The notes under the pieces: generated by a model | Seen by the model: the letters and a program-made list of their open reading frames with translations, nothing else | Databases searched by the model: none | Told to the model about the DNA's origin: nothing | Made by a program: the position numbers and the translations under genes | Part shown: positions 5,826 to 30,725 of the stretch, piece by piece | Numbering within the stretch: the first letter of the stretch is position 1 | How the letters are laid out: every line of letters starts with the position of its first letter | Assembly: GCA_964531975.1 (NCBI GenBank) | Contig: CAZHFU010000012.1 | Location: 12,705 to 76,704 of the forward strand | Direction of reading: 5' to 3' | Origin: an uncultured Anaerolinea sp. | GTDB taxonomy: Bacteria; Chloroflexota; Anaerolineae; Anaerolineales; UBA4823 | Length of the DNA stretch: 64,000 nucleotides

Positions 5826-7544
5826 TCAAGCCTGATCAAAAATCTTATCCATCTCCTCAGTCGGCACATCAAACACAGCGTTTGTGGGGTGCAGCGGTTC
5901 ACGCGTCATCCACTCCGGCAGGCGGTCTTGAGCGGAGGTGAACCCCGCCCGGCGGTTAAACTCGCGCTCCATAAGCACCGTTTCTTTGCCCAACACTTGC
6001 AAGTAGTTATCCGGCACGTCCCAACCATAGCGCGCCTTAATCAGCGCCGGGATCACCTGCGGCACAGAGCCGTAGCTAAACCCCGTGAAGATACACGCGC
6101 CGAGCGAGTCGTACCCGGCCATGTTAAACTGAGCAGTGCGCGACACTTCCACCTGGCCTTCGGGGCTGGTTTGATTGATCTTGGCGCGAATAGTTAGCCC
6201 GGAGGTGTGGTCGGCGCCCTGGGCGGAGGTGGCGTAGGTAACCCCTGTGCCCTTAATAGCCCGCGGATCGTAGGCGCTCATGGCCTGGTTCTTAACCGCC
6301 GGCACACGCTCCACCCCCAAAACTTGCCCGGTGATGGCCGCCCCGTTGCCAATGATGCGCCCCAGTGGGGTATTGGTGCGGATTTCTTGCAGCAGCCGCA
6401 TCGCCCCGTCATAATCGCCCCACGCAAACAGACCCGCTTCGGCTGCAACGCCCAACGCCGCCCCAATTTCAATCGAATCCAGGCCCATATCGTTCACTTC
6501 CCAGTTAAGGCGGGCGATGCAATCCAGGTCGCTAATACTCAGGTTCGACCCCATTAGCCCCAAAGTTTCGTATTCGATCGGCGAGACCACCGCCTTGCCG
6601 TTCACATCGCCGAAAATGTTCGACGAGCGAATGGCGCAGCCCACCATGCAGGCATGTGAAGTGTCACATTCGCCGCCGCGATCCAGCATGGCCTGGCGCA
6701 CCGCTTCACCGGAGATTTCCTCCGCCCGTTCAAATTGCCCATCCGAAAAGTTGCGCGTGGGCAAGCAGCCAAAGCTCTGGCACATCATCACAATAGCCGC
6801 AGTACCAAAATCGCGATAAGTGGCCGTTTGCGGATGAGCTGCCAGGGCAAGGCTAAATTCTTTGCGAGCGGCCTTAAAAGCGGCCTCATCCAAAATAGGC
6901 GGCTTGGATCCGCCGGATCCGTCAATCACCACTGCCTTGACATGCTTAGACCCCATCACCGCGCCAATGCCGCCGCGGGCGGCAATGCGGGTAGGTTGGC
7001 GATCCTTGTCCAGGTTTTGGATGCCGGCGCCGCGCAGCTGTTGTTCGCCGCCGGGGCCGATGAGCGCAATGGCGGGTTTCTCACCATAGCGTTCGATCAA
7101 GAGGGGCGCAGCGGTAAACACGCCGGTGTTCAATAAGTCGTCGGCCGCGTCGAAGCGCACTCCGCTGCTGCTCACGTGCAGCGTCCACCACCCCTGATCG
7201 GGTCGCTCTTCAATGATGAGCGCCTTAATCCCCAGCATCGCCAACTGCAAGCCGGTGCGCCCGCCGGCGTTGGCCTCTTTAATGCCTCCGGTTAGCGGGC
7301 TTTTCGCGCCGATGGAGATGCGGTCGGTGCTGGAAATCATGTGCCCCACCAATAAACCTGGTGCGAAGACCAGCTTATTATTCGGGCCTAGCGGTTCACA
7401 AGTCGCCACGTCTTCATCTAGTAAAATTCTAGTCAATAAACCGCGCCCGCCCAACTTGCGCCAGGCTTCGGGCACGGGTTCACGAGCAAAGCTGCGAGTG
7501 CGCATGTTCACTCGCCAAATCGAGAAGAATTCGTTGTTTTCCAT
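5826..7544 (-). CDS. Aldehyde:ferredoxin oxidoreductase (W/Mo-pterin AOR family)
   Basis: KSPLTGGIKEANAGG, AARGGIGAVMGSKHVKAV, EYETLGLMGSNL, GLDSIEIG, YATSAQGADHT motifs. Confidence 0.92.
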   Translation of the reverse strand: MENNEFFSIWRVNMRTRSFAREPVPEAWRKLGGRGLLTRILLDEDVATCEPLGPNNKLVFAPGLLVGHMISSTDRISIGAKSPLTGGIKEANAGGRTGLQLAMLGIKALIIEERPDQGWWTLHVSSSGVRFDAADDLLNTGVFTAAPLLIERYGEKPAIALIGPGGEQQLRGAGIQNLDKDRQPTRIAARGGIGAVMGSKHVKAVVIDGSGGSKPPILDEAAFKAARKEFSLALAAHPQTATYRDFGTAAIVMMCQSFGCLPTRNFSDGQFERAEEISGEAVRQAMLDRGGECDTSHACMVGCAIRSSNIFGDVNGKAVVSPIEYETLGLMGSNLSISDLDCIARLNWEVNDMGLDSIEIGAALGVAAEAGLFAWGDYDGAMRLLQEIRTNTPLGRIIGNGAAITGQVLGVERVPAVKNQAMSAYDPRAIKGTGVTYATSAQGADHTSGLTIRAKINQTSPEGQVEVSRTAQFNMAGYDSLGACIFTGFSYGSVPQVIPALIKARYGWDVPDNYLQVLGKETVLMEREFNRRAGFTSAQDRLPEWMTREPLHPTNAVFDVPTEEMDKIFDQA

Positions 7545-23583: not shown

Positions 23584-23598
23584 GTTATAATGCTCTCC

Positions 23599-24090
23599 AT
23601 GGTCGAAAATAGCGATTTCTTACGCATTAACGTTGGCTTTATCGTCGCACAGACGATCGGCTTTCGCCGCGATATTCCGCTGGATGCCCCGGAAGTGCGC
23701 CTGGCGGAAGACCTGACTCTCAAAGATTTGCGCGGGCACGCTGTGGTTACGCGCACCTCACCAGGATTGTTAATCCAGGTGCAGTTGGAAGCTACCGCCC
23801 AAGCGGAGTGCGCCCGCTGCCTGGTTGACTTTGAGCAGCCGTTGAGCATTGATTTTACCGATTTATGGGCCTTTACGCCAGAGCAGATGACCGATTCCGG
23901 CCTGCGGGTTCCGGAGAACGGCAAAATTAACCTGGCGCCCATCGTTCGCGATGAAATGCTGCTCTCTTTCCCCATTAGCCCGATCTGCAAAAAAGACTGC
24001 CGGGGCTTATGCAGCGTGTGCGGAGAGAACCTGAACCTTGACCCCAACCACCGCCACCCCGAAGAAGAACAGGGCGATGAGGATGTTTAG
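23599..24090 (+). CDS. yceD: DUF177/YceD family protein
   Basis: ECARCL and CKKDCRGLCSVCGENLN Cys motifs; start 23599 sits 7 nt after TATAAT (23590 alternative). Confidence 0.9.
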   Translation: MVENSDFLRINVGFIVAQTIGFRRDIPLDAPEVRLAEDLTLKDLRGHAVVTRTSPGLLIQVQLEATAQAECARCLVDFEQPLSIDFTDLWAFTPEQMTDSGLRVPENGKINLAPIVRDEMLLSFPISPICKKDCRGLCSVCGENLNLDPNHRHPEEEQGDEDV

Positions 24091-24159
24091 GATGCAGGTT
24101 TAGGCGGCGTTGGTTCTTTTTGGGCCGTCTCCCAGACCGTCATCGTTTGAAAAACGGCC

Positions 24160-24188
24160 TTGACAGAACCCTGGCAATTTATTACACT
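24160..24188 (+). promoter_or_regulatory. sigma70 promoter of the metG leader
   Basis: TTGACA (24160-24165), 17 nt, TACACT (24183-24188). Confidence 0.85.
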
Positions 24189-24195
24189 TGCACTC

Positions 24196-24276
24196 ATGCA
24201 AAAGCGTCCCGCTTCTTCTGCTCGTCCACTAACCCCCCAGGCATTCATGCCTATGGGCATGCGTGGCTGCGTCTAA
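24196..24276 (+). CDS. Putative Met-rich leader peptide MQKRPASSARPLTPQAFMPMGMRGCV (26 aa, leaderless)
   Basis: ATG 7 nt after -10 box; ATG codons at 24247, 24253, 24259; TAA 24274-24276; directly upstream of terminator and metG. Confidence 0.75.
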   Translation: MQKRPASSARPLTPQAFMPMGMRGCV

Positions 24277-24325
24277 ACGGGACTGCCTTAAATTCAACCG
24301 TGTCATTCAAAACATGATAGAATCG

Positions 24326-24357
24326 GCGGGCTGTCCTGGTGACAGCCCGCTTTTTTT
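24326..24357 (+). terminator. Intrinsic terminator (attenuator) in metG leader
   Basis: GCGGGCTGTC / GACAGCCCGC 10-bp stem, 5-nt loop, T7 tail, 23 nt before metG ATG. Confidence 0.88.
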
Positions 24358-24380
24358 CACCCAAATTCTGGAGGTGCTGG

Positions 24381-26162
24381 ATGTCTGAAACCATTCTCGT
24401 CGCTGTGGCGTGGCCCTACGCCAACTCGCCCATTCACGTGGGCAACCTGGCCGGCTCTTACCTGCCCGCCGATATTTTCGCCCGCTTCCACCGCCTGGCA
24501 GGCGACCGGGTTATCATGGTTTCCGGCTCAGATGCTCACGGCACACCTGTGGCGGTGCGAGCCGACGCCGAGGGCCTCTCTTCGCTGCAGATCTACCAGC
24601 GTTTTCACAATTCGTTCATCGATCTGTTCCAGAAATTGGGCTTGCATTATGATCTGTTCACCAGCACCCATACCGAGAATCACTTCCGCGTATCGCAAGA
24701 TATTTTTCTGGCCTTGCAACGCAACAATTACCTGTATACCGAGCGCCAGAAACAGTGGTTCGCCCCTTCGCAGGGCCGCTTTCTGCCCGACCGCTACGTG
24801 GAGGGTACATGCTACATCTGCGGCTACCCCAACGCCCGCGGCGACCAGTGCGATGGCTGCGGCAGCCTGCTCGACGCCAACCTGATCATCAACCCGCGCT
24901 CCAAAATCGATGGCTCGACCCCCGAACTGCGCGAGACCGAACACTTCTACCTCGACCTGGCCGCCCTCGAACCCGGCATTGTCGAGTTTCTGCGCCAGCG
25001 CGAGAGCTATTTCCGCCCCAACGTACTGCGCCAATCGCTGGGCCAAATTCAGGTCGAAAGCCTGCATGGGCGCGCCATCACCCGCGATCTGGATTGGGGC
25101 ATCCCCGTGCCGGTTGAAGGCTGGGAGGGCAAATGCCTGTACGTGTGGTTTGAGGCGGTCATCGGTTATCTTTCCGCGGCCATCGAATGGGCCAAGCTCA
25201 CCGGTCAGCCCACCGCCTGGCATCAATGGTGGACCGACCCCGCCGCTAAAGGGTATTACTTCATCGGCAAAGATAACATCCCCTTTCACGCCGTCATCTG
25301 GCCGGGGCAGTTGATCGGCGCAGGTGAAGCCTTTGTGGAAATCTTCGAAGGCCAAAGCGGGCAAAAGCTGGTCTTGCCCTACGATGTGCCCGCCAACGAA
25401 TTTATGAACCTGGAAGGTAAGAAGATTTCGGGCAGCCGCAACTGGGCCGTGTGGGGTTTGGATTTCTTGGAGCGGTTTGACCCCGACCCGCTGCGTTATT
25501 ACCTGACCGCCAATATGCCTGAAACCAAAGATACCGATTGGGATTGGGAAGATTTTGTGCGCCGCAACAACGATGAGCTGGTCGCCACCTGGGGCAACCT
25601 GGCGAACCGCGTGTTAGCCTTCGGCTATAAGCACTGGGAAGGCGTCGTCCCCGACCCCGGCGAACTGCGCCCCGAAGATGAAGCCATCCTGTTGGCGGTG
25701 GAAAGCGGGTTTGAAACCGTGGGAGAGCTCTTTAGAGCTGTGAAGCTGCGCGCCGCCCTGAATGAAGCCCTGCGCCTTTCGGCGGAAGTCAACAAATACC
25801 TGGATAAAACGGCCCCCTGGTTTGAAATAAAGACCGACAAGGCCGCCGCGGCTAAGTCGGTGTATACCGCCATGCGCTGCATCGACTCGCTCAAGCTAAT
25901 GTTCGCGCCCTTTATCCCTTTCAGCAGCGAACGCCTGCACGGCTTCTTTGGCTACACCACGCCCCTGTTTGGCGAGCAGTTCACCCAAGTGGTAACCGAC
26001 CGCCTGGGCGAGCATACCGCCCTGCGCTACCAGCCCATCGACGCCGGCAGCCAGTGGCAGCCCAGCCAACTGGCCGCCGGGCAAAAGCTCAACCAGCCCG
26101 GCCCGTTGTTTAAGAAGTTGGAACCCAGCGTGGCGGCGGAGGAGAGGGCCAGGTTGGGGTAA
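24381..26162 (+). CDS. metG: Methionine--tRNA ligase (no C-terminal tRNA-binding domain)
   Basis: AWPYAN..HVGN (HIGH), SGSDAHG, CYIC/CDGC zinc knuckle, YVWFEA, GKDNIPFH, KISGS; GGAGG SD. Confidence 0.97.
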   Translation: MSETILVAVAWPYANSPIHVGNLAGSYLPADIFARFHRLAGDRVIMVSGSDAHGTPVAVRADAEGLSSLQIYQRFHNSFIDLFQKLGLHYDLFTSTHTENHFRVSQDIFLALQRNNYLYTERQKQWFAPSQGRFLPDRYVEGTCYICGYPNARGDQCDGCGSLLDANLIINPRSKIDGSTPELRETEHFYLDLAALEPGIVEFLRQRESYFRPNVLRQSLGQIQVESLHGRAITRDLDWGIPVPVEGWEGKCLYVWFEAVIGYLSAAIEWAKLTGQPTAWHQWWTDPAAKGYYFIGKDNIPFHAVIWPGQLIGAGEAFVEIFEGQSGQKLVLPYDVPANEFMNLEGKKISGSRNWAVWGLDFLERFDPDPLRYYLTANMPETKDTDWDWEDFVRRNNDELVATWGNLANRVLAFGYKHWEGVVPDPGELRPEDEAILLAVESGFETVGELFRAVKLRAALNEALRLSAEVNKYLDKTAPWFEIKTDKAAAAKSVYTAMRCIDSLKLMFAPFIPFSSERLHGFFGYTTPLFGEQFTQVVTDRLGEHTALRYQPIDAGSQWQPSQLAAGQKLNQPGPLFKKLEPSVAAEERARLG

Positions 26163-26324: not shown

Positions 26325-27092
26325 ATGCTCCACCCGCTGCAACCCACGGAAAACGATCTGCTGCCCAAGAAATCGCTCAAAGACAGCGTATTCGACTATT
26401 TGCACACCCGCATCGTGGCCGGCAAGGCCGCCCCTGGCGAGTGGCTGCGCCAGGAAGACATCTCCACCCATTTGGGCGTGAGCCAAACGCCGGTGCGCGA
26501 AGCCCTCGACCTGCTGGTAGCCGTGGGCCTGGCTGAGCGTGTGCCCTACCGCGGCGTGCGTGTGCCGGAATTGGACGCCGCCGAAATCATCGACGCCTAT
26601 GTGCTGCGCCTGATCTTAGAAACCGCCGCCGCCCGCCTGGCCGCCCTAAACATCACCCCCGCCGAAGTGGAACATTTGCAAACGCTGCTGGATCGCACCC
26701 GCACCCTGGTCACGCTGGACGATATGCCCGCCTTGCAGCAGCTCAACCGCCGCTTCCATAACGACCTGGCCGCCGCCTCCCACAACCCCTTGCTCAGCAA
26801 ACATTATCAGAACGCCGCCAACAAATTTCCCGATTGGCGGCTGTACGAAAGCATGTTTCGCCACCCCGAAATGCTCAAAACCAGCCTGCCGCGCGAGCTG
26901 GGCGAACACCAGGCCATGCTCACCGCCCTGGCCGCTCACCAACCCGACCAGGCCGTGGCGGCTGCCACCATCCACATTCGCAACCTGGCCCACGAATTAG
27001 TAACCTTCCTCAACATTCCTTCCCATCTGCTGGCGGCCAAGGAGGCCCAGGTGGCGGTCTTGCTGCAAAGCAGCCCGCCGCCCACCGCCTAA
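26325..27092 (+). CDS. GntR family (FCD/FadR-type) transcriptional regulator
   Basis: LRQEDISTHLGVSQTPVREAL wHTH; NRRFH and EHQAML FCD motifs. Confidence 0.92.
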   Translation: MLHPLQPTENDLLPKKSLKDSVFDYLHTRIVAGKAAPGEWLRQEDISTHLGVSQTPVREALDLLVAVGLAERVPYRGVRVPELDAAEIIDAYVLRLILETAAARLAALNITPAEVEHLQTLLDRTRTLVTLDDMPALQQLNRRFHNDLAAASHNPLLSKHYQNAANKFPDWRLYESMFRHPEMLKTSLPRELGEHQAMLTALAAHQPDQAVAAATIHIRNLAHELVTFLNIPSHLLAAKEAQVAVLLQSSPPPTA

Positions 27093-27136
27093 GCCGTTAT
27101 TTCTACATTATCCAATCACTTGCAAGGAGGCAACCC

Positions 27137-27784
27137 ATGACGACTGAATTGTTCCAAGCGATGGCGCAAAGCATTATCGACGGCGACGCCGAAGCCGCGG
27201 AGGCGCTGGCCCGCCAGGCCATTGAAGCCGGTATCGACCCCCTGGAGGCGATCAACCAGGGCTTTGTAGTAGGCGTAAACCATGTGGGCAAAGAATTCGC
27301 CGCCGGCGAAGCCTTTTTGCCCGAACTCGTCATGGCCGGCGAAGCCATGAAAAGCGCCGTCGCCACCCTGGAGCCGGAAATGGCCCGCCGCGGAACCAGC
27401 CGCGAAATGCTGGGCAAGGTGGTGCTCGGAACCATTCAGGGCGATATTCACGAAATCGGCAAGACCCTGGTGGGAACCATGCTGACAGCCGCCGGGTTCC
27501 AGGTCTACGATTTAGGCGTGGATGTGCCGGTGGAAAAGCTGGTGGCGAAGGCCCGCGAAGTGGAGGCCGACATTATCGGCGTCAGCGCCCTGCTCACCAC
27601 CACCATGGTGCGCCAGCGCGATGTGGTGGAAGCCCTGGAAGATATGGGTATGCGCCCAAAGGTGAAAGTGATGGTGGGCGGCGCGCCGGTAACCCGTGAA
27701 TGGGTGGAAGAAATCGGCGCGGACGGCTATTCGGAAGACGCCATCGGCGCAGTAGACGTGGCCCGCCGCCTGGTAGGGAAATAG
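27137..27784 (+). CDS. Corrinoid (B12-binding) methyl-carrier protein, MtgC/MttC-like
   Basis: FLPELVMAGEAM cap, GTIQGDIHEIGK (DxHxxG), GVSALLTTTM, VMVGGAPV; AAGGAGG SD. Confidence 0.95.
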   Translation: MTTELFQAMAQSIIDGDAEAAEALARQAIEAGIDPLEAINQGFVVGVNHVGKEFAAGEAFLPELVMAGEAMKSAVATLEPEMARRGTSREMLGKVVLGTIQGDIHEIGKTLVGTMLTAAGFQVYDLGVDVPVEKLVAKAREVEADIIGVSALLTTTMVRQRDVVEALEDMGMRPKVKVMVGGAPVTREWVEEIGADGYSEDAIGAVDVARRLVGK

Positions 27785-27794
27785 GGAGCGCAGC

Positions 27795-29258
27795 ATGGCC
27801 CGCAAAATCAAATCGATTACCAACCCTAAATTGGGGCTGAGCATCCTCACCCCGCAAGAAGTGGAACGCCTGCACGGCGCTACCCTCGATGTGATCGAAA
27901 AGACCGGCGTACGCTTTCCCTCGACGCGCGCCTTGAAAATTTGGGCCGACGCCGGAGCCGATGTAAATTGGGATACCCAGGTGGTTAAAGCCAGGGGGCA
28001 TCTCATCGACGCCGCCCTGCGCCAGGCCCCGCCCGCCTACACCCTGGCAGCCCGCGCCCCCGCCCAAGATCTGCCGCTGGATGGCAACCACGTTCACCTG
28101 GGAACTGACGGCTGCGGCGTGGAGGTGATCGATCTATACAGCAGCCAGCGCCGCCGCACTTGCCTGCAAGATGTGGCCGAAATCGCTCGCCTGGGCGATT
28201 ACCAGGAAGAGATCGCCTTCCATTGGGTGGCCGTCTCGGCCCAAGATAAACCAGCGCACACCCGCGGCCTGCACGAGCTGAAGGCGGTGTGGGAGAACTC
28301 GACCAAGCATGTGCAAACCGAAAGCGTCTATTCCGAAGCGGAAGCCAAAGCGGCCATTGAAATGGCCGCCGTGGTGGCGGGCGGGCGCGAACAGCTGCGC
28401 CAACGTCCGCTGCTTTCGATCATGCAATGCACCGCCCCACCCCTGGGCCACGACGGCGGCAGCCTGAACGCCGCCCTCATCGCCGCCGAAGCAGGCATGC
28501 CGGTGGGATTCATGACCATGGCCTCCATGCTTACCACCGGCCCGGCCACCCTGGCGGGCAACCTGGTGGTGGGCAACGCCGAAGTCATCGCTGGTACGGC
28601 CCTGATCCAACTGGCCTACCCGGGTGCGCCAGTGTTCTACGCTGCCGCCCAAACCGCCTCCGACCTGCGCACCGGCGCCTATACCGGCGGCGGCCCCGAA
28701 GATTTCCTGTTCGGCGCAGCCACCAACGTGCTGGCCGATTACTACAACATTCCGCTTTCAATGGGCTCCTTCGCCACCGGCGCTAAGCAGCCCAACTGGC
28801 AGGCTGGGGTCGATAACAGCCTGTCAACCTTTATGGCCTGCGTGGTAATGTCGGATATGCTCTTGGGGGCCGGCTTTTTGCATGGCAGTCGCATATGGTC
28901 GTACGCCGAAATGCTCATGGACTGCGAAATCTTCAGCATCGTGCATAAAATGCTGGGCGGCATCGTCATCAACGACGAAACCCTGGCGCTGGACGTGATC
29001 AACGCCGTGGGGCCGGGCGGCAACTTCCTCGCCCAAAAGCACACCCTGCGCCACATGCGCGAGATTTTCAACCCTCAGTACATGGATCGCCGCCCGTATA
29101 ACGAATGGGAAGAAAAAGGCGATGGCGCTGTGGAATGGGCCGCCGCCAAGGCGCGCCAGATTTTAGAGACCCACCAACCCGACCCGCTGGCCGCCGGCCT
29201 TTCCGCCGAGCTGGCTCGCATCATCGCCGCCGCCGAGCGAGAACATCCGCTGGCTTGA
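27795..29258 (+). CDS. Trimethylamine methyltransferase (MttB) family protein, non-pyrrolysine, copy 1
   Basis: LDVIEKTGVRF, TLAGNLVVGNAE, QLAYPGAPVFY, ALDVINAVGPGGNFLAQKHT. Confidence 0.92.
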   Translation: MARKIKSITNPKLGLSILTPQEVERLHGATLDVIEKTGVRFPSTRALKIWADAGADVNWDTQVVKARGHLIDAALRQAPPAYTLAARAPAQDLPLDGNHVHLGTDGCGVEVIDLYSSQRRRTCLQDVAEIARLGDYQEEIAFHWVAVSAQDKPAHTRGLHELKAVWENSTKHVQTESVYSEAEAKAAIEMAAVVAGGREQLRQRPLLSIMQCTAPPLGHDGGSLNAALIAAEAGMPVGFMTMASMLTTGPATLAGNLVVGNAEVIAGTALIQLAYPGAPVFYAAAQTASDLRTGAYTGGGPEDFLFGAATNVLADYYNIPLSMGSFATGAKQPNWQAGVDNSLSTFMACVVMSDMLLGAGFLHGSRIWSYAEMLMDCEIFSIVHKMLGGIVINDETLALDVINAVGPGGNFLAQKHTLRHMREIFNPQYMDRRPYNEWEEKGDGAVEWAAAKARQILETHQPDPLAAGLSAELARIIAAAEREHPLA

Positions 29259-29267
29259 GAGGACGCT

Positions 29268-30725
29268 ATGCAGCCCAAAATTCAACTCCTTTCCGAAGAC
29301 CTGGTGCAGCGCACCCTGGATGAAGCCTATGCCCTGATGCGCGATCACGGCCTAAAGGTGCAAGCGCCCGAGGCCCGCCGTCTGCTGGCCGAGGCCGGGG
29401 CGCGCATCGACGAGGCCAACGAAATCGCCTACCTGCCCGAAGACTTGGTGCGCCGGGCCATGTCCACCGCTCCCAGCCAATTTACCCTCTACAATCGCCA
29501 GGGTGAGGCGGCCGTCAACTACGGCGGCGACGCGGTGCATTTCGACCCCGGTTCATCCGGCGTCCACATTCTCGACCCCGACACGCTCGAACATCGCCCG
29601 TCCTACACCAAAGACCTGGTGCGCATCATCAAAGTGGCCGAAATGCTGCCCCAGATCGACGCCCAATCGACAGCGGTGGTATGCAGCGAAATTCCCAAAG
29701 CCATCGGCGACCTGTACCGCCTGTACCTGGTGCTGCGCTACTCGAGCAAGCCCATCATCACTGGCGCGTTTTCGATCAGCACCCTGCAAACCATGATCGA
29801 CATGATGGCGCTCTTCGCCGGCGGGCGGCAAGCCCTGGCCGAAAAACCGCAGGCGGTGTTCGATGTGTGCCCCTCGCCGCCGCTGATCTGGAGCGATTTC
29901 GGGGCGCAGAACCTGATCGAGCTGGCGCGGGCCGGCGTTCCGGCGCAGATGGTCTCGATGCCCCTGGCGGGCGCGGCCGCGCCGGTGACGCTGATCGGCT
30001 CGGTGGTGCAGCACGCCGCTGAGTCGATGAGCGGCGTGGTTATCCACCAGCTGGCAAACCCCGGCGCGCCGATCGTATGGGGCGGCGCGCCCGCCATCTT
30101 CGATATGCGGAAAGGAACCACCCCCATGGGCGCCATCGAAACCGCCATGATCGACGCCTCCTACGCCCAGGTAGGCAAAGCCCTCCACCTGCCCACCCAT
30201 ACCTACCTGGGCGCTTCCGACGCCAAGCTGGTGGACGCCCAGGCCGGCCTGGAGAGCGGTATCACCGCCATCATCGCCGCCCTGGCGGGCGTCAACATGG
30301 TTTCCGGCGTGGGTATGCTCGATTTCCTGGCCTGCTTCAGCGTCGAAAAGCTGGCGATAGACGCCGAAGCCGTGGGCATGGCAAAGCGCCTGATCCGCGG
30401 GGTGCAGGTGCATACCGACACTCTGGCGCTGGAGATGTTCGCTAACATTGCCTTCAAAGGTGAGTTTCTCAAGCAAAAGCAAACCCGGCAGCTGTTTTCC
30501 AAGGAGCAGTATTTACCCTCCCCCATCATCGATCGTGGTTCAGTGCGCACCTGGCAAGAAGAAGGCGGCGCCGATGCCTTCTCCCGCGCCAAGGCCCGTG
30601 TGCAAACGCTGCTGGCGGATTATCAACCGCCCAACCTGCCCGCCGGTCAGCTCGCAGCCCTGGAAGAAATGGTATGGACCCTGGCGCAAACAGCCGGCAT
30701 GGAGAAGCTGCCCGCCGCTGAATAG
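29268..30725 (+). CDS. MttB family protein, non-pyrrolysine, copy 2
   Basis: APVTLIGSVVQHAAE, QLANPGAPIVWG, DAKLVDAQAGLE, GMLDF. Confidence 0.92.
   Translation: MQPKIQLLSEDLVQRTLDEAYALMRDHGLKVQAPEARRLLAEAGARIDEANEIAYLPEDLVRRAMSTAPSQFTLYNRQGEAAVNYGGDAVHFDPGSSGVHILDPDTLEHRPSYTKDLVRIIKVAEMLPQIDAQSTAVVCSEIPKAIGDLYRLYLVLRYSSKPIITGAFSISTLQTMIDMMALFAGGRQALAEKPQAVFDVCPSPPLIWSDFGAQNLIELARAGVPAQMVSMPLAGAAAPVTLIGSVVQHAAESMSGVVIHQLANPGAPIVWGGAPAIFDMRKGTTPMGAIETAMIDASYAQVGKALHLPTHTYLGASDAKLVDAQAGLESGITAIIAALAGVNMVSGVGMLDFLACFSVEKLAIDAEAVGMAKRLIRGVQVHTDTLALEMFANIAFKGEFLKQKQTRQLFSKEQYLPSPIIDRGSVRTWQEEGGADAFSRAKARVQTLLADYQPPNLPAGQLAALEEMVWTLAQTAGMEKLPAAE

Follow-up and report, generated by a model that had tools for sequence, protein, structure and literature searches.

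A candidate Met-tRNA-sensing leader-peptide attenuator of metG, widespread in Anaerolineae

What occupies the gap upstream of metG, the gene for methionyl-tRNA synthetase (MetRS), in Anaerolineae, and could it control the gene? We addressed this question for a 64,000-nucleotide stretch of DNA from an uncultured Anaerolinea sp. (GenBank assembly GCA_964531975.1, contig CAZHFU010000012.1, positions 12,705 to 76,704 of the forward strand). The whole stretch is called the window here; coordinates are window positions, and the promoters, the leader and metG are on the + strand. In the public gene call, nothing is annotated between the upstream neighbour (23590–24090), which encodes a YceD/DUF177 protein, and metG. 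An earlier note on this DNA had proposed that the gap holds a leader-peptide attenuator, a sensor of Met-tRNA charging on a leaderless mRNA. Leader-peptide attenuation is a textbook mechanism with described sensors for Trp, His, Phe, Leu, Thr, Ile/Val and, in a translational variant, Cys. Control by methionine is otherwise ascribed to MetJ/MetR, S-adenosylmethionine (SAM) riboswitches and T-boxes. Our analysis indicates that the metG leader is probably a ribosome-mediated transcription attenuator, by which expression of metG would be adjusted to how much charged elongator Met-tRNA is available; ribosome stalling, the transcription start and the response to methionine are what we infer. A Met-tRNA-sensing attenuator of metG is well supported by the sequence comparisons described below. 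Its mechanism would be of a known kind, its Met specificity appears not to have been described previously, and the element is widespread in Anaerolineae and unannotated.

The leader in the window begins with promoter P1, which matches the consensus at 10 of 12 positions (−35 TTGACA at 24160–24165, 17-nt spacer, −10 TACACT at 24183–24188) and is one of only two sigma-70-like sites that the consensus scan gave in 5 kb. It is followed by an upstream open reading frame (uORF) of 26 codons at 24196–24276, with ATG at 24196–24198 and stop codon TAA at 24274–24276, encoding MQKRPASSARPLTPQAFMPMGMRGCV. Three Met codons (24247, 24253 and 24259) lie within five codons (MPMGM, 24247–24261). Because the ATG is only 7 nt 3′ of the −10 box, the uORF is presumably leaderless, with the transcription start placed by the −10 spacing. 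Just past the stop codon is region 2, the putative 5′ strand of the antiterminator (24278–24288, CGGGAC-U-GCCU), which is a diverged version of the family motif GGRCAGCC. A variable spacer (24292–24324) forms small nested hairpins, enclosed by the antiterminator in the predicted folds. It leads to an intrinsic terminator (24325–24357) composed of GGCGGGCTGTC (24325–24335), the loop CTGGT, GACAGCCCGCT (24341–24351) and a T7 run (24351–24357). The 11-bp stem with its 5-nt loop has a folding energy of −21.4 kcal/mol (z=−5.2 versus shuffles). The Shine-Dalgarno (SD) sequence of metG, GGAGG at 24370, lies 13 nt past the T run and is unpaired in predicted folds. The gene (24370–26162, counted from the SD) has its ATG at 24381–24383 and its stop codon ends at 26162; the product is a class I MetRS of 593 aa with the Pfam domains tRNA-synt_1g and Anticodon_3. 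The positions given in the earlier note for the promoter, uORF, MPMGM cluster, stop codon, terminator and metG SD were all correct; the terminator, taken there to be of 10 bp, has 11 pairs.

We then compared metG loci of relatives whose MetRS is 66–82% identical to that of the window (80 genome and 80 metagenome loci; the metagenome scan yielded no relative above 81% MetRS identity). A leader of the same layout, here called type A, was found at 45 of 81 genome loci, the window counted, and at 52 of 76 metagenome loci. About two thirds of the sampled Anaerolineae metG loci thus have a type A leader, and 97 non-identical copies were left after removal of duplicates. The order of elements is promoter, Met-cluster ORF, a CGCGCC hexamer, region 2 (GGRCAGCC), a variable spacer of 35–50 nt and a terminator of the form GGCTGYCC-loop-GGRCAGCC-T run, in a total of about 130–170 nt. 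At the position of P1, nearly all type A relatives have the same promoter, which reads TTGACAAA-N14-TAnACT, and the ORF has 17–56 codons (mostly 26–41) with clustered Met codons. A covariance model, R1, built from 50 type A leaders with the window excluded, matched the window from the Met cluster to the terminator (24238–24354, + strand; 31.9 bits, E=4.8e-07), which was the sole significant match in the 64 kb. In 80 independent metagenome loci, R1 gave 55 full-length matches, all directly 5′ of metG. Two further loci, L334 and L335, carry a degenerate type A leader about 150 to 30 nt 5′ of metG, with the terminator AGCTGCCC-GAAA-GGGCAGTT and a Met cluster reduced to SMAMM (25.7 bits with the family model).

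Are these ORFs translated? In the 75 nt 5′ of region 2 of the 97 leaders, 418 ATG triplets share a single frame and the remaining two frames together contain 38; inside the called uORFs the split is 250:33. The leader, at ~110 nt, holds the densest in-frame ATG cluster of the ~8-kb locus, counted over all six frames, at 36 of 60 loci. Type A clusters have 2–9 Met codons (median 4), and Met clustering across relatives is far beyond chance. The conserved cluster that the earlier note had asked of relatives is therefore present upstream of their metG genes. Start signals were of two types. The leaderless type, with ATG 6–9 nt 3′ of the −10 box, occurs in 13 loci, and the 7-nt spacing in the window falls in this range. 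In the other type, an ATG or GTG about 25–39 nt 3′ of the −10 box follows a GAAAGG-type SD. The phase of region 2 (xGG-GCA-GCC) is fixed in 70 of the 74 leaders that translate through it, versus a mixed phase (14:6:2) in the 22 leaders with a stop codon ahead of region 2. Indels in type A leaders are frame-preserving.

The position of the stop codon was also informative. It is bimodal, lying just 5′ of region 2 in 18 leaders including that of the window and 3′ of region 2 in 79. The end of the stop codon is at least 21 nt from the terminator core in all 97 leaders and 22–25 nt from it in 54 of them. The position is thus constrained although the flanking spacer is unconserved. A ribosome terminating 22–25 nt before the terminator could fit between region 2 and the terminator 5′ arm (region 3) with the terminator not melted. 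The uORF peptides vary freely except for the Met cluster and an Arg-Ala pair that coincides with CGCGCC; their C-terminal parts are partly conserved. The hexamer is conserved in type A leaders 5–12 nt 5′ of region 2 (the window has GCGTCT at 24266–24271) and is always read as Arg-Ala, with the stop codon directly after it or the ORF continuing. It could act in RNA pairing, as a pause signal or as a peptide feature.

In type A leaders, region 2 repeats the terminator 3′ arm over 8 nt and is therefore able to pair with the 5′ arm. In 52 sequences, the core of region 2 and the 5′ arm was paired in 96.6% of cells, versus 25–50% in slid registers. At core positions 3–5, all 39 non-consensus variants retain a standard pair. 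At position 3, A occurs only opposite T (28:0), compared with a 43:25 split for G (Fisher 5.7e-5, with no correction for phylogeny). Translated and untranslated copies of region 2 are both conserved, so the constraint acts on the RNA. The consensus fold of the family is the terminator, with two covarying pairs.

We also folded leaders with ribosome footprints masked. When the ribosome occupied the last Met codon and the terminator 3′ arm was left out, region 2 was paired with the 5′ arm in the minimum free energy fold of about 55 of the 60 leaders. Region 2 starts at a median of 22 nt past the last Met codon and thus just outside the reach of a stalled ribosome. The antiterminator that had been drawn by hand for the window exists, and ViennaRNA favours a slightly better register, CGGGAC-U-GCCU (24278–24288) with GGGC-U-GUCCUG (24328–24338), which puts the domain at −21.5 kcal/mol (z=−3.1). 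In the free leader RNA of the window, the terminator is predicted together with a helix of 24204–24212 with 24278–24286. A ribosome on any one of the Met codons is predicted to give the antiterminator, provided that the polymerase is not beyond 24340, and a ribosome on the stop codon to cover region 2 and give the terminator. These folds agree with the earlier proposal that a ribosome at the Met codons frees region 2 and one at the stop codon covers it, as long as the 3′ arm has not yet been made.

Start signals, an in-frame Met cluster, a terminator, an antiterminator pairing and a target tied to Met, all expected of a leader-peptide attenuator, are present in this family. We propose that the transcript from P1 would begin at or beside the ATG of the 26-codon ORF. 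If Met-tRNA(Met) is plentiful, the ribosome would pass the three Met codons, reach the stop codon at 24274 and cover region 2; in most relatives, it would translate through region 2 and park between regions 2 and 3. With region 2 unavailable, the 11-bp terminator would form and most transcripts would end in the T7 run before metG. A shortage of Met or of MetRS activity would stall the ribosome at 24247–24261 and leave region 2 free. Free region 2 would pair with the terminator 5′ arm before the 3′ arm is synthesized, and the polymerase would read into metG.

Several observations weigh against this interpretation. The Met cluster of the window, taken alone, is unexceptional, as three in-frame ATGs within 12 codons are equalled or exceeded elsewhere in the 64 kb, and with three Met codons it belongs to the smallest class of the family. 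The R1 score of the window is at the low end (31.9 bits versus 46–93 bits for most members), which marks it as a diverged member. Covariation in the stems, which the earlier note had wanted to see in relatives, was obtained for the terminator; the antiterminator shows conserved complementarity and one-sided changes only, with no pair changed on both sides. Past the 8-bp core, no covariation was detected between the terminator loop and the bases 5′ of region 2 (permutation, 0.83 versus 0.74±0.12). At equilibrium, the full transcript favours the terminator and the 1:2 helix even with a ribosome at the Met codons. As in classical attenuators, the terminator wins at equilibrium, and the switch would therefore have to be kinetic. 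Translation of the leader itself needs fMet-tRNA, which is also MetRS-dependent and complicates the simple logic. A second candidate promoter, P2, may drive metG while bypassing the attenuator. Finally, comparison of RNAduplex energies with those of shuffles revealed no conserved region 1, anti-antiterminator or pause hairpin in the family; a 1:2 hairpin overlapping the regulatory codons is the one expected sequence feature of an attenuator for which we found no match.

This last result also affects the earlier note, in which GTCCCG (24206–24211) was to act as anti-antiterminator by pairing with CGGGAC (24278–24283). The two segments are able to pair. The duplex is no better than shuffles (z=−0.65) and is not conserved, and 24206–24211 lies 35–55 nt upstream of the Met codons, so that a ribosome stalled there would not cover it. 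In the family, the best upstream partner of region 2 had a mean z of −0.26 at positions that were inconsistent between leaders, and we rejected region 1 as a family feature. The core of the earlier proposal, that a Met-codon leader ORF is translated from a leaderless mRNA and is coupled to a choice between terminator and antiterminator for metG, is strongly supported by the comparison with relatives, and its anti-antiterminator is not supported.

The family looks like a three-region design, in which the antiterminator should form by default if no ribosome is present. As an anti-antiterminator is not conserved, read-through is likely the default state of a leader without a ribosome. This would fit MetRS, since initiation on the leader also needs its product. 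We tentatively consider a default-ON attenuator that reads MetRS output twice, as fMet-tRNA(fMet) at the 5′-terminal AUG and as Met-tRNA(Met) at the cluster. If either failed, region 2 would stay free and read-through would follow; metG would be switched off only when a ribosome initiates on the leader and also completes it. The conserved stop codon 22–25 nt before the terminator would park this ribosome between regions 2 and 3 and leave the terminator undisturbed. This more specific version is possible rather than probable.

Candidate promoter P2 is a perfect extended −10 element (TGATAGAAT, 24315–24323, + strand), which the earlier note had overlooked. Its predicted start is near 24330, inside the terminator 5′ arm. 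The motif (TGnTA[ACG]AAT) is the promoter 27–49 nt 5′ of metG in 44 of 54 relatives without a leader. The hairpin left to a transcript from near 24330 would have only 6 bp, with 4 nt between it and the U run, and the transcript should therefore escape termination. The window may thus have a constitutive bypass promoter beside the attenuated P1. Just 4 of 97 leaders have an extended −10 ahead of the terminator, which is background level; the element is specific to the window, and we rejected it as a feature of the family and as a sigma-dependent pause. A −10-like box past the terminator, CGCTACAAT, lies 25–35 nt 5′ of metG in L022, L025, L030 and L361, which are type A loci with a gap of ~100 nt between terminator and metG. 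These boxes suggest an attenuated and a constitutive promoter in those lineages too.

Known RNA families were searched for with Rfam 15. At the gathering score, no match was obtained to the leader in the window or in 15 relatives, and cmscan of 23900–24600 with E up to 10 returned only chance-level matches to unrelated families. The scans of the window and the 15 relatives contained no match to a T-box stem I, specifier loop or T-box sequence, and none to a SAM or other methionine-related riboswitch, as the earlier note had concluded by eye. Between regions 2 and 3 lies the sole long unpaired stretch, and relatives share neither its sequence nor its length, which argues against a ligand-binding aptamer. 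The known leader families (Trp_leader, His_leader, Leu_leader, Thr_leader, Phe_leader and L20_leader) were also rejected; L20_leader reached 21.2 bits (gathering score 58.7, E=0.13) and this match was driven by the terminator. A translational attenuator of the poly-Cys type does not apply, since the metG SD is not sequestered and the switchable element is an intrinsic terminator.

Could the same terminator be controlled in another way? In a translation-independent RNA switch, the AUGs would be read by tRNA(Met), as in a T-box, or by a protein, and AUG would serve as the Met specifier. In favour of such a switch, the metG and metS genes of Firmicutes are often under T-box control. Chloroflexota, too, use T-boxes and SAM riboswitches (PMC3766115, PMC2494555). 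The leader is short for this purpose, however, its region 2–3 spacer is not conserved, and the Rfam scans described above recovered neither a T-box nor any other family. ATGs in one frame, start signals, a constrained stop codon and frame-preserving indels would all be needless for an untranslated RNA, and we regard this switch as very unlikely. If the uORF is translated, its product might itself be functional, as a Met-rich micro-protein, with the hairpin as a constitutive terminator or insulator and metG expressed from its own promoter, e.g. at 24315–24323. The perfect extended −10 in the window leader, of the kind used by relatives without a leader, and the CGCTACAAT boxes of some long-spacer relatives are consistent with this explanation; that the gene caller skipped the uORF is neutral either way. 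Any loose match to an extended −10 between leader and metG was found in only 4 of 85 type A leaders, however, and in most leaders the 20–50 nt that separate the T run from the start codon are too few to hold a promoter. The peptide is also poorly conserved outside its Met residues, and a micro-protein would leave unexplained why region 2 copies the terminator arm, why the stop position is constrained and why the element travels only with metG. We consider this explanation quite unlikely.

A translation-dependent attenuator with the same architecture could also respond to another signal. This could be general translation capacity, or arrest by a Met-rich nascent peptide in response to methionine or SAM, as TnaC responds to tryptophan. 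The in-frame Arg-Ala after the Met cluster and the partly conserved C-termini could mean a function at the level of the peptide. However, CGCGCC may be a feature of the RNA, because it is conserved even where the stop codon follows directly. The Met cluster is the only feature common to all type A peptides and to those of a second leader type (type B, below), with the other residues varying, and the gene downstream encodes the only enzyme to charge tRNA(Met). A different signal therefore seems unlikely to us, and sensing of Met-tRNA charging is the explanation we favour.

The association with metG was evaluated by a DNA pattern search of genome contigs that required neither metG nor ATG. Most of the matches listed were chance ones in GC-rich genomes, and the Chloroflexota subset was used. 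Among the matches listed, the downstream gene could be evaluated for 17 Chloroflexota copies and was metG in every case. At all evaluable copies examined, the type A element is linked exclusively to metG. A second metG was not seen within the 64-kb window.

Two other leaders were noticed in the course of these searches. The type B leader, found in L031, L052, L061, L063, L372, L397 and L400 and in a related form in L067, lies about 145 to 30 nt 5′ of metG and precedes only metG. It has a promoter different from that of type A and a leaderless uORF of the pattern M-x3-[SCT]-M-[LM]-M-...-FTAR-stop. A conserved hairpin, GGUUUAC-UGCCAG-GUAAACC, contains the stop codon, and the terminator is AACGCUGGC-GAAA-GCCAGCGUU. 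An antiterminator of type B was not found by simple folding, masked folding or alifold. In L288 (about 6290–6440, + strand) and L301 (about 390–540, + strand), a Cys/Met-rich uORF, MSLRSFYVCMCTTMCNCRIRTAYYSRA, ends in a stop codon and is followed by GGACAGCC. The terminator there is GGCTGTCC-loop-GGACAGCC-T run, and the next ORF resembles a TonB-dependent receptor. This may be an unrelated attenuator, perhaps for Cys, from another phylum. Elsewhere in the window, the genes 3′ of metG (about 26325–29258) encode a GntR regulator, a B12-binding corrinoid protein and an MttB-family methyltransferase, and Rfam PYLIS_3, the pyrrolysine insertion element of mttB, matches at 30213–30312 (+ strand) with a score of 40.2 (gathering threshold 38).

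If our interpretation is correct, the metG leader would add a new amino-acid specificity to leader-peptide attenuation, be a first case of this mechanism in Chloroflexota and be another instance in which the ribosome mediates feedback on a synthetase from its own product. The codon that would be sensed doubles as the initiation codon, on transcripts whose start is leaderless or SD-led depending on the lineage. In a phylum that has received little study, the leader could serve to test leaderless initiation and the coupling of transcription to translation. The uORFs are unannotated, and R1 could annotate more than 100 of them. The earlier note knew of no Met leader-peptide attenuator of metG. 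Likewise, we did not find a Met-codon leader peptide or a metG attenuator in Rfam 15 or the literature searched, and an earlier mention elsewhere is possible.

Among known systems, the pheST operon of Escherichia coli, in which a Phe-rich leader peptide precedes the genes for phenylalanyl-tRNA synthetase, is a close analogue of the metG leader; its attenuator was reportedly described by Fayat, Springer and co-workers in the 1980s. Both combine a leader rich in the cognate amino acid with an intrinsic terminator before a synthetase gene and would provide feedback from the charging of the enzyme's own tRNA. Here, however, the amino acid is Met, the organisms are Chloroflexota and the sequence family is a different one. 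The uORF is apparently leaderless in the window and 13 relatives and is apparently translated through region 2 in most relatives, and we found no conserved 1:2 hairpin of the pause or anti-antiterminator kind. The trp, his, leu, thr and pheA attenuators of Proteobacteria share the regulatory codons, the mutually exclusive antiterminator and terminator and the coupling of translation to transcription. They differ in that their targets are biosynthetic operons and not a synthetase gene, in having four regions where the metG leader apparently has three, and in that their Rfam families do not match it.

In Firmicutes, the T-boxes of metS and metG reach the same end, as they raise MetRS when tRNA(Met) charging drops by a choice between terminator and antiterminator. 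Unlike the proposed attenuator, a T-box reads uncharged tRNA directly and does not need translation, and its hallmarks are absent here. Outside Proteobacteria, leader-peptide attenuators of synthetases have been predicted in bacilli, as a His leader peptide before hisS paralogues (PMC2965389), and in Streptomyces avermitilis for trpS2 (PMC1262725). These concern other amino acids and lineages and act on duplicated or paralogous synthetases. The leaderless polycysteine short ORFs of mycobacteria sense Cys by ribosome stalling and act on translation, not termination (bioRxiv 10.1101/834739). They have in common with the metG leader a leaderless short ORF, clustered codons of one amino acid and control of downstream genes based on stalling, whereas in Anaerolineae the uORF is separated from metG by a canonical intrinsic terminator and its T run.

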